DNA of 64,000 nt from contig JAUVXW010000002.1 in assembly GCA_030603385.1 (NCBI GenBank), positions 96,001 through 160,000 on the forward strand. The letters run 5' to 3'. A model generated the notes under the pieces. The model saw only the letters and a program-made list of their open reading frames with translations, was not told the DNA's origin and ran no database searches. Position 1 is the first letter of the stretch. Each line of letters opens with the position of its first letter. Positions 15,686 to 19,049 of this stretch are shown here, in pieces. Source of the DNA: Promethearchaeota archaeon (GTDB lineage: Archaea; Asgardarchaeota; Lokiarchaeia; Sigyniarchaeales; SOKP01). Made by a program: the position numbers and the translations under genes.

Positions 15686-15937
15686 TTGAAAAAAAACTGG
15701 GTTAAATTAAATCTATTCTATATTGGAAAATCTAAAAAACATCAAATCTTTAGAGCAAAACAGTGGAATAGTAACTTTGAAAAAATACTCAAACAACCTG
15801 TTTATAATGAAAAATATGAAAAAATTGGTTATATTAAGGATATATTTGGTCCAATTAACATACCTTTCATTTCAATCAAAGCCTTGCCTAACCAACTATT
15901 TGACCGCAATGTAAAGGTTTATACTAAACTAGCCTAG
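15686..15937 (+). CDS. gar1: H/ACA RNP protein Gar1
   Basis: KIGYIKDIFGPINIPFISIK; gar1-tfb synteny. Confidence 0.85.
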   Translation: MKKNWVKLNLFYIGKSKKHQIFRAKQWNSNFEKILKQPVYNEKYEKIGYIKDIFGPINIPFISIKALPNQLFDRNVKVYTKLA

Positions 15938-15993: not shown

Positions 15994-16962
15994 ATTTCAA
16001 GTTGGAGAGAATTAAAACAAGAATCCGATGAAGTTTTGAGTATACAGACTAATCTGTGTACAGAATGCGGGAACACTATATTTTTTGATGAAAATAGAGG
16101 TTTATTAGTTTGTGAAGAATGCGGTTTAGTACATTCTGAGAAACATATTGATAGAGGTCCGGAATGGAGGGCTTTTAATGCAGATCAAAAAAAGAAGAGA
16201 ACTAGAACTGGTGCACCTATGACATATATGATACATGATAAGGGTCTTAGTACTATGATAGACTGGAGAAATAGAGATATTTTTGGTAAGGAAATACCTG
16301 CTAAATTGAGAGGTCAAATATATAGACTTCGAAAGTGGCAAAGTCGTATCAGAGTTTCTGATGCTACTGAGAGAAACCTTACATTTGCACTAAGTGAACT
16401 TGATAGAATGGCTTCAAACTTAGAGCTTCAAAAAAATTTAAGAGAATGTGCTGCAAAAATTTACCGTGATGCTGTTGAGGCTCATCTTATTCGCGGTAGA
16501 AGCATTGAGGGGGTGGCCGCTGCTAGTTTATATGCTGCATGTAGAATGTTTAAAGTACCACGTACATTAAACGAGATTGCTGAAGTAGCTCGTGTAGATA
16601 AAAAGGAGATCAGCAGATCTTTTCGATTTATTTCGAATGAACTAGAATTAAACTTAAACCCAACTAAACCAATCGATTTTCTTACTAGATTCATTTCAGA
16701 GTTAAAACTAACATCTAACTGCCAAAAAATGGCAAAAGCGATTATTAGAATGGCAGAAAGACGAGGATTAACTTCAGGAAGAGGTCCTACAGGAGTATGT
16801 GCAGCTGCAATTTATGCTTCAAGTATTTTATCAAATGAACGTAGAACTCAGAGAAGTATTGCTCGAGTTAGTTGTGTGACCGAAGTTACAGTCCGAAATC
16901 GTTTTAGTGAACTTGTAGAGAATCTAAATCTTGGCATATCTTTAAAGAGGAATAATAAATAA
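15994..16962 (+). CDS. tfb: Transcription initiation factor IIB (probable ATT start 15994; ORF track uses TTG 16036)
   Basis: CxxC..CxxC ribbon, GPEWRAF, cyclin repeats, [14 protein letters not shown] lies 6 nt before the in-frame ATT. Confidence 0.96.
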
Positions 16963-18205: not shown

Positions 18206-18700
18206 ATTCACTTAGTAATAACTTACTTTAACCAAATATTAGGACCAAGTGTTTTGTTATCTTATCCTGATGAATTGTTAGAGGAAAATCTCATAAATAA
18301 ATTAAAAAAGTTTTTTGATTTAGAAATTGATGAGACCTTCTTCGAAATAATCCTTATTACTAAGAAAAAGAAAATTATCAATTTTCATTTCGAAATTCCG
18401 TCTAAGTGGGCACGTGGGGAAAAGGAGGATGCCATGCTCTCCCTAATAATAAAGAAAGAATATGAAAGTTCTCAATTTTATGCATTTCTAGTAGATTCAT
18501 CGTATAAAATCTTAAAAACTGAAAATGTGTACAAAGCTTTTTATAAAGATGATGAATTTCACGATAATGATATTGAAATTGATATGACGTATGAAATAAT
18601 AAGAAAAATTCTTTTTAACTGTGTATCAAGTCTTATATTACGGATAGAAGATAAAATTAAAGGAGTAGATAAAAAAGAACCGTTTCCTTTCTCTTCGTAA
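18206..18700 (+). CDS. Longin/uDENN-like protein (probable ATT start)
   Basis: The in-frame extension gives (I)HLVITYFNQILGPSVLLSYP, the typical YFx3-4GP N-terminus; also FEIPSKWARG..E..MLS. GGTGAG SD at 18195. Confidence 0.6.
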   Translation: MHLVITYFNQILGPSVLLSYPDELLEENLINKLKKFFDLEIDETFFEIILITKKKKIINFHFEIPSKWARGEKEDAMLSLIIKKEYESSQFYAFLVDSSYKILKTENVYKAFYKDDEFHDNDIEIDMTYEIIRKILFNCVSSLILRIEDKIKGVDKKEPFPFSS

Positions 18701-18701
18701 T

Positions 18702-18716
18702 GAAAATCTTTATAAT
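18702..18716 (+). promoter_or_regulatory. BRE/TATA promoter of the putative ncRNA
   Basis: GAAAATC-TTTATAAT about 24 nt upstream of GGGAG at 18739. Confidence 0.6.
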
Positions 18717-18738
18717 CTTATTTTCCTATTATAATAAT

Positions 18739-19049
18739 GGGAGAACAATGATGGAATAAACTGCGTTTTCGAGGACTCATACGACTAAAAAATGAGTATG
18801 CAGTGCAAAGTGACGCGAAAATTCGGAGTTAATTAGTCCGTTATAATCCTGTACAAATGGGCTCTTAGTCTAGCAAAGGTGATTACCAAAGCGATGAAGC
18901 TTGAGTCAGTACGCAGGAGACATGACTATGTTCCCAATAGCGCATAGAGATTTTTGCCTAGCACGAGAGAACATGTTTGATTTTAAAGGTATTTCCCTAA
19001 AATGAGAATATAGTGTTAGTGTCATTAGGCGAAATCTATGCCATTTTTT
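18739..19049 (+). ncRNA. Unclassified ~305-nt structured RNA
   Basis: ORF-free and GC-enriched; many complementary segments (see findings); TATA upstream and T-tract downstream. Confidence 0.72.

Follow-up and report, generated by a model that had tools for sequence, protein, structure and literature searches.

What does a stretch of raised GC content and without reading frames encode in the genome of a Promethearchaeota archaeon? The stretch in question lies in a 64,000-nt segment of this genome (positions 96,001 to 160,000 of contig JAUVXW010000002.1, assembly GCA_030603385.1), which we refer to as the window and whose coordinates are used throughout; all features described in the window are on the + strand. 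Within positions 18739-19037 no open reading frame (ORF) of 40 aa or more was found, and the GC content of the region is 0.38-0.44 compared with 0.20-0.30 in its surroundings. A sequence-only reading of this DNA had proposed a novel, large and possibly catalytic non-coding RNA (ncRNA) with a pseudoknot or two-state switch. Our comparative analysis showed that the region is a real, stand-alone and conserved small RNA (sRNA) gene of about 310 nt (18739-19049). We consider it highly probable that its product is a box H/ACA guide sRNA with three motifs (A, B and C) on one transcript, which would bind the H/ACA proteins and direct pseudouridylation. This reading is based on the kink-turn (K-turn) or K-loop in each hairpin, the ANA boxes, their distance from the pocket (the ruler), and the fit of the first pocket to a known pseudouridine (Psi) site. 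The proposal of a novel and possibly catalytic RNA thus gave way to a more familiar one, as all three hairpins carry the marks of archaeal H/ACA RNAs.

Three hairpins with box H/ACA anatomy

The three hairpins share one design, consisting of a lower stem, an internal loop, an upper stem with tandem G.A pairs and an apical loop or hairpin. An ANA box follows 0-2 nt past each lower stem and reads ACA in 58 of 71 (A), 57 of 70 (B) and 53 of 69 (C) sequences, the remainder being AAA, AUA or AGA. The window itself has AAA in A, ACA in B and AAA in C. Between the uppermost nucleotide of the 3' loop strand and the ANA box lie 14 nt in 59 of 71 sequences for A, mostly 14-17 nt for B (16 nt in 31), and 16-17 nt in 64 of 69 for C, where the count started at G19015. 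Archaeal H/ACA RNAs have a ruler of 14-16 nt and tolerate AUA, AAA and AGA as ANA variants (PMC7991803); K-loop or K-turn motifs lie above the pocket, and one to three hairpins occur per RNA (PMC7991803, PMC2377435). In archaeal H/ACA RNAs these motifs bind L7Ae.

Motif A (18763-18821) is composed of a GCGU/ACGC lower stem, the pocket, the upper stem, a K-loop, a spacer and the ANA box, and its pairs are 92-99% paired with four compensatory pairs. The K-loop (18783-18795) consists of GA (18783-84, kept in 64 of 71 sequences), a 9-nt loop and a second GA (18794-95, 71 of 71); it follows the order of stem, U.U-type position, G.A/A.G and loop, and the loop is variable among homologs. The H/ACA-like motif B (18848-18922) has a CCUG/CAGG lower stem (P4, three compensatory pairs), a loop, a GGCUC/GAGUC helix, a K-turn-like GAUGA, an apical GGU/ACC hairpin, and AG followed by ACA (18920-22), which is two nt past the stem and in most sequences 14-17 nt from P5. 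P4 is replaced by GGGCA/UGCUC and GAAGAU/AUCUUC in relatives, that is by double changes. The bulge and G.A pairs of its K-turn (GAUGA, 18893-18897) read (A/G)AUGA in 63 of 71 sequences; the A opposite is conserved and the 2n base variable, and in the relative L159 a canonical K-turn with a 3-nt bulge can be read directly. Motif C (18956-19034) has a lower stem (GCCU..GCAC/GUGU..AGGC), pocket, upper stem, tandem G.A, apical hairpin and an ANA box (AAA at 19032-34, ACA in most homologs), and is 94% paired with six compensatory pairs. The 5' strand of its tandem G.A (18979-18980) is GA in 61 and AA in 10 of 71 sequences and faces GA at 19004-19005, the 3' strand being AUGA in 62 of 71. The tandem G.A of hairpin C has the form UGA/UGA; in GC-rich relatives it includes a 3-nt bulge.

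With G.A/A.G in the upper stems of all three hairpins, at near-invariant positions, we assign a K-loop or K-turn-like motif to each of A, B and C. Of the L7Ae idea in the earlier reading, the K-turn-like part stood, with tandem-GA motifs that are nearly invariant; these motifs are read from sequence geometry, and L7Ae binding to them is predicted. By the known H/ACA mechanism, the K-loop or K-turn of each hairpin would be the binding site of L7Ae, and its lower stem and ANA box that of Cbf5-Nop10-Gar1. The target rRNA would base-pair with both strands of the internal loop so as to leave between them a uridine, which Cbf5 would isomerise to pseudouridine.

Comparative support for the fold

The minimum free energy of the single sequence was not better than that of shuffled sequences (z = -1.5 for the + and -1.2 for the - strand), and the structure therefore has to rest on comparison. 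The 52 proposed pairs were 95.0% paired in 30 genus sequences, compared with 30-44% when the partner was slid by 1-3 columns. Compensatory changes were found for 13 pairs in the genus alignment, a result matched by none of 500 shuffles. The 3' domain alone was 94% paired with six compensatory pairs, the stems of hairpins A and C were 88-100% paired with compensatory changes, and an alignment of 71 family sequences recovered the same helices. Together with the single-copy homologs described below this supports the stand-alone structured ncRNA that had been proposed from the window alone.

Several helices of that proposal were also recovered in 30-71 homologs, namely the closing helix GGGA../..UCCC (P1), ACUCAU/AUGAGU (the upper stem of hairpin A), GGCUC/GAGUC, GGU/ACC and the long 3' hairpin. 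Others (CTGCGT at 18761 with ACGCAG at 18911, TTTTCG/CGAAAA, CGGA/TCCG and CCTGT/ATGGG) are specific to the sequence of the window and not conserved; the family keeps instead GCGU (18763)/ACGC (18813), CCUG (18848)/CAGG (18914) and UAGUC (18834)/GACUA (18924). The suggested pseudoknot or switch between a GACUAA loop and UUAGUC did not hold either: the loop is variable and does not consistently track the P3 strand, and one of the UUAGUC copies is the P3 strand itself.

Hairpin A and its predicted target in the large subunit rRNA

Neither small subunit (SSU) nor large subunit (LSU) rRNA genes were detected in this metagenome-assembled genome (MAG), which is 94% complete by marker genes, and rRNAs of relatives were therefore used for the target search. 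The 5' pocket strand of motif A, UUUCGAGG (18767-18774, with UCGAGG nearly invariant), is complementary to LSU CCUCGA(UG), and the 3' pocket strand GCAAA (18805-18809; GCA(A)(A/G) among homologs, with GCA invariant) to (CU)UGC directly 5' of the target U. When compared to LSU and SSU of the family, the pocket had a sole site, GCUUGC-UU-CCUCGAUG, a second match being the same site shifted by one base; the predicted modified U is that in GCUUGC-U-UCCUCGAUG. The pairing comprises 9-13 pairs, with 5+8 Watson-Crick pairs for the genus consensus and 4+6 for the window's own sequence, and 4 of 200 shuffled pockets equalled the real rRNA match. No variation of this site was seen among the LSU genes fetched from the family, from Atabeyarchaeum and from the sister family f2, in which this RNA itself was not found. 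In one outlying MAG, whose RNA has no hairpin-A-like domain, the site is altered.

The best weak Rfam match of the region was to snR46 (RF01253, clan CL00021), at 15 bits with a gathering threshold of 43. The 5' hairpin of the snR46 model aligned stem-for-stem with hairpin A, and its pocket strands UUCGAAG/UCAAAGC fell on UUUCGAGG/GCAAAGUG. In yeast, snR46 guides Psi2865 of 25S rRNA in the peptidyl-transferase centre, a site conserved in human (PMC8307265). For Pyrococcus abyssi, Psi2549, Psi2588 and Psi2603 of 23S rRNA were described as conserved with eukaryotes, and the guide for Psi2588 is motif 1 of the three-motif sRNA Pab40/Pf7 (PMC2377435). These three positions are spaced by 39 and 15, as are Psi2826, Psi2865 and Psi2880 in yeast. 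The predicted target of hairpin A corresponds to Psi2865 of yeast and Psi2588 of P. abyssi, and the pocket matches a conserved and already known pseudouridylation site. We take the target U to be position 2496 of the E. coli sequence in our own numbering. The uridine that hairpin A would guide, within GCUUGC-U-U-CCUCGAUG, belongs to the peptidyl-transferase region of the LSU rRNA. While snR46 guides the equivalent LSU position, it is a eukaryotic two-hairpin H-box/ACA snoRNA (small nucleolar RNA) without K-turns, and its similarity to hairpin A may reflect the shared target rather than common descent.

Hairpin C and a candidate target in helix 69

The loop strands of motif C are highly conserved, with the 5' pocket strand GAGAGAAC (18965-18972) identical in 62 of 71 and the 3' pocket strand GUUAGUG (19015-19021) in 69 of 71 sequences; both strands are also kept in Atabeyarchaeum and in relatives that have this hairpin only. 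Helix 69 of the LSU rRNA reads GUAAC-UAUAA-CUCUCUU, so that GUUA of hairpin C can pair with UAAC and GAGAG with CUCUC, with UAUAA unpaired. Helix 69 is identical in the family, in f2, in Atabeyarchaeum and in the outlying MAG with hairpin C only. One or more uridines of the helix-69 loop (UAAC-UAUAA-CUCUC) are the most likely target of hairpin C, and we give this assignment about an even chance.

A guide with a comparable fit is known from Haloferax volcanii, where the SL2 hairpin of sR-h45 acts on helix 69 with four unpaired target bases and rulers of 17 and 19 nt (PMC7075261). sR-h45 is an archaeal H/ACA RNA that resembles the one described here in its several hairpins and its large structured spacer. 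Its SL2 guides the two helix-69 pseudouridines, and it is like hairpin C in that more than two bases of the target stay unpaired and that the ruler is long (17 and 19 compared to 16-17 nt). sR-h45 differs in having two hairpins, the 5' one of which targets another site, Psi2605. In the pairing proposed for hairpin C, five bases of the target and three of the guide would stay unpaired.

Two other solutions for hairpin C were rejected. The canonical U-N geometry did not fit at helix 69, where a fit was obtained only with 4-5 bases unpaired. A site in the H35 region (UUAGC-UG-GUUCUC) offered 5+6 pairs in one genome and is disfavoured, as the target varies (GUUCCU, GUUCCC) under an unchanged guide.

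Hairpin B and the case against three working guides

For hairpin B no rRNA target was found in LSU and SSU of relatives. An A-loop site (GCCCAUU) was discarded because most family members have an A at the position to be modified and the sister family has a different guide, CUGGGU beside H35 is not conserved as a target, and a strong match for the relative L159 falls in a variable LSU region. A scan for tRNA targets recovered only 13 intron-less tRNAs. Hairpin B could be an orphan guide, or it might not guide at all and serve as a module or scaffold for assembly.

Among the closest known systems is Pab40/Pf7, a single RNA with three H/ACA motifs that likewise all have an ANA box and a K-turn or K-loop (PMC2377435). 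Its motif 1 guides 23S Psi2588, the conserved position in the peptidyl-transferase region that is predicted for hairpin A, and its motif 3 guides Psi2016 in domain IV, the region of the probable target of hairpin C; by distance we place Psi2016 in helix 69. Motif 2 of Pab40 guides U1932 of 23S rRNA, whereas no target was found for the middle motif of the Loki RNA, and by this analogy the region 84 nt upstream of helix 69 was searched for a hairpin B match with no result. The Loki RNA differs further by its shorter lower stems and by the closing helices P1, P3 and H1. The likeness described here is one of architecture and sites. The archaeal H/ACA models in Rfam gave no match to the Loki RNA.

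Several observations weigh against a three-motif H/ACA guide. With 4-6 bp, the lower stems of A and B are shorter than the minimum of 7 bp that the H/ACA descriptor for P. abyssi required (PMC2377435). The boxes of A and C in the window are AAA, and each ANA box precedes an extra helix (P3, H1) or, in the window, partly pairs into it. In the window's family the bulge at the tandem G.A of hairpin C is 1 nt and not 3 nt. The proposed pairing of hairpin C with helix 69 leaves five target bases and AAC of the guide unpaired, and in canonical geometry its rRNA score was not above that of shuffles (156 of 200 were equal), with no site standing out. Hairpin B is without a target, and its loop strands (..AYGG/..ACCC; ..GGG/..CCC) could pair with each other. 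Searches against Rfam 15 returned no family at gathering threshold in the whole window, with chance-level matches up to E 10. The contigs assembled from RNA libraries, described below, prove neither the ends of the RNA nor its strand.

These points could be accommodated if only hairpin A were a working guide and hairpin B, hairpin C or both were K-turn scaffolds or had another role such as RNP (ribonucleoprotein) assembly, stability or rRNA chaperoning. We regard such a composite RNA as possible though unlikely. It would account for the missing target and the mutually complementary loop strands of B and for rRNA matches of C that are no better than shuffles, and the large structured spacer between the two guide hairpins of H. 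volcanii sR-h45 offers a precedent. Yet B and C keep their G.A pairs and an ACA at ruler distance across distant lineages, and C, which also occurs as a stand-alone hairpin with ACA, has loop strands that are invariant from Lokiarchaeia to Atabeyarchaeum. Such constancy is to be expected of a guide whose target does not vary, as is the case for helix 69.

Helices that tie the hairpins together

Helix P1 is formed by GGGAGAACA (18739-18747) and UGUUCCC (18929-18935) and encloses hairpins A and B; it is 97% paired in the 30 genus sequences and extended to GCGGGA/..CCCGC in the GC-rich family. P3, with UAGUCC (18834-18839) and UGACUA (18923-18928), encloses motif B and its ACA and is 96-97% paired. 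It reads UAAUCA/UGAUUA in the family and is compensated to AAGCUG/CGGCUU, AAACCG/CGGUUU and CAGCC/GGCUG in other lineages. H1, with GCAUAG (18942-18947) and CUAUGC (19036-19041), encloses motif C and its ANA box. Throughout the genus alignment its five modelled pairs are formed (100%); at the sixth (G18947/C19036) G-C, U-A and A-U variants occur in addition to eight unpaired cells. The helix is missing in some genera of the family. The ACA of hairpin B directly abuts P3, and in the window H1 partly pairs with the AAA box of C. P1, P3 and H1 are three helices beyond the standard H/ACA design which tie the units together, and this nesting is unusual.

Such nesting might be seen as a new H/ACA RNP architecture with a middle hairpin that has a K-turn and an ACA box but no usable pocket, which we consider rather doubtful. 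By analogy with eukaryotic bipartite H/ACA RNPs or the H/ACA domain of telomerase, the middle hairpin could help assembly without guiding. If this were true, the Asgard RNA with its snR46-like pocket A would stand between the single-hairpin guides of archaea and the two-hairpin snoRNAs of eukaryotes. As it stands, P1, P3, H1 and a middle hairpin without a target are of modest interest to those who work on H/ACA RNPs or on how eukaryotic snoRNAs with two hairpins arose.

Directly after the 5' strand of P1 follows a conserved single-stranded motif, AAUGAUGG (18747-18754), which is box C-like, with an invariant UGA and one G conserved in the 30 sequences. It is kept from Lokiarchaeia to Atabeyarchaeum in variants with a central GA (CUGACGAG or UUGACGAA in the sister family, CGAUGAAGG in Atabeyarchaeum), and neither a pairing partner nor a role was identified for it. 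A 9-mer, AUGAUUAUG, was found twice in most family members, in the window at 18792-18800 (3' strand of the hairpin A K-loop) and at 18921-18929 (P3/P1 junction), and either copy could pair with UAAUCA. This duplication is not present in the GC-rich relatives and is therefore probably a coincidence.

Other classes of RNA

A new class of L7Ae-bound structured RNA or a ribozyme, with a function unrelated to H/ACA guides, was also considered. No Rfam family reached its threshold, GC-rich homologs had no Rfam match either, and the complex nesting, the extra helices and the conserved AAUGAUGG motif would suit an RNA of this sort. It would however require that three ANA boxes at ruler distance, K-loop and K-turn motifs in H/ACA position, and a match to a known Psi site with snR46-like pocket strands had all come together by coincidence, and the pseudoknot proposed for it is not conserved. 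We hold this to be very improbable. The resemblance to group I P7 that had been suggested for UAGUC/GACUA dissolved as well, since this is helix P3, which covaries as an ordinary helix.

A long box C/D RNA, with box C (AUGAUGG) at the 5' end, a box D-like AUGA near 18922 and a terminal K-turn for Nop5 and fibrillarin, hardly deserves credence. AUGAUG directly follows the 5' strand of P1, AUGA stands just before its 3' strand, and weak matches to C/D snoRNAs (E 3-6) were obtained. The AUGA that had been read as box D-like (18922-18925) overlaps, however, with the covarying 3' strand of P3 (18923-28), and in the sister family this strand is CGGCUU or CGGUUU with a compensated partner, leaving no UGA. 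Neither a CUGA box D nor an antisense element at D+5 geometry was seen.

That the gene encodes a divergent RNase P/MRP or signal recognition particle (SRP) RNA, for which its size of about 300 nt, its raised GC content and the lack of a detected SRP RNA in this MAG would speak, is already refuted, as the region matches neither model, a full-length RNase P RNA (129 bits) lies on another contig of the same genome, and 26 of 36 genus relatives possess an SRP RNA at a different locus in addition to this RNA. With no Rfam family at threshold and RNase P and SRP at other loci, the exclusion of RNase P, SRP, transfer-messenger RNA (tmRNA) and tRNA in the sequence-only reading was borne out.

The preferred interpretation is still that of a three-motif H/ACA guide for the LSU rRNA of Loki-type Asgard archaea, most likely an ordinary kind of RNA, which Rfam does not detect. 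In a literature search we found no description of H/ACA guide RNAs in Asgard archaea. For the ribosome of Loki-type archaea, pseudouridines are predicted at defined positions in the peptidyl-transferase region and probably in helix 69, at sites common to Pyrococcus and eukaryotes. The analysis also supplies a covariance-ready alignment for finding further guides. Nothing here overturns current knowledge.

Promoter, ends and transcription

The elements that had been noted in the window alone, a TATA box, GGGAG at 18739 and a run of six T at 19044, could all be read there directly. An archaeal promoter (18702-18716) consists of a purine-rich stretch resembling a TFB recognition element (BRE) and the TATA box TTTATAAT (18709-18716). 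The T6 tract (19044-19049) is a likely archaeal terminator. In homologs, A/T-rich TATA-like boxes were found at the same distance from the RNA start as in the window, and T-rich runs lie 3' of the gene in many of them. From GGGAG to T6 the gene is free of ORFs, conserved over its full length and represented in contigs from RNA libraries.

In three metatranscriptomic runs from two studies, contigs spanned positions 18739-18976 and none of the flanking genes, while in a probable DNA run from one of the same two studies contigs spanned the entire 1.4 kb including the flanks. In two of the metatranscriptomic runs the contig started at 18739, which is 23 nt past the end of the TATA box. The RNA-library contigs stop at a U-run without covering 18977-19049, and we drew no conclusion from that gap.

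Distribution among Asgard archaea

One full-length copy was found by blastn in 33 of 36 genus genomes, with 67-97% identity. A covariance model of the 3' domain detected a single copy in 118 of 131 sampled genomes of the family (Promethearchaeia/Lokiarchaeia), covering 13 genera, and gave weak matches in one sister family; in a phylum-wide sample 24 of 25 family genomes were positive. A pattern scan of 185,579 species genomes identified Promethearchaeota/Promethearchaeia MAGs as carriers, including CR_4 and Loki_b32, and additionally Candidatus Atabeyarchaeum deiterrae. Full-length relatives were found in the GC-rich sister family (L102, L103 and L110) and in Atabeyarchaeum and one similar MAG (L139 and L159), and other MAGs had versions with the 3' hairpin alone or with a different 5' domain.

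Some of the copies deviate from this pattern. The family member L104 has a second copy that consists of hairpin C only (1501-1605, - strand), about 600 nt from the full gene (2081-2440), in which the 5' pocket strand is changed from GAGAGAAC to GAGAAUGG and the ACA is kept; this is a guide paralogue in the course of diverging or else a copy in decay. Elements like hairpin C with the same pocket strands and ACA, and without hairpins A and B, were found at L150:5327-5420 (-) and L119:7290-7389 (+), in MAGs labelled Bathyarchaeia and Woesearchaeota. In the one labelled Woesearchaeota, the LSU site of hairpin A also differs (CAUCGUUG). Strong copies of the RNA were further found in sequences deposited as Nanopelagicaceae bacterium, Hermodarchaeota, Odinarchaeota and Hodarchaeota (L149, L120, L162 and L165). 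Several such contigs coincide with genomes grouped in the window's own family, and these submitter labels therefore look unreliable.

Genomic neighbourhood

The RNA gene is located in the neighbourhood of a longin/roadblock cluster and an ECF transporter. It forms a block with an upstream gene for a 148-aa protein, and in many species of the genus this block has the reverse orientation with respect to the roadblock genes and cbiO (window 18254-19049 compared to L009-L031). This inversion relative to the flanks indicates that the RNA is an independent gene and neither a leader nor a 3' untranslated region. In four species (L012, L017, L018 and L020) the gene for the 148-aa protein is not beside the RNA. 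Among the proteins expected to act with an H/ACA guide, Cbf5 is encoded in the genome (419 bits). A Gar1 gene fragment, with a match exactly at the Pfam cut-off, was found in the window at 15785-15925. It directly precedes the TFB gene (16036-16962) and is 2.8 kb away from the RNA on its upstream side.

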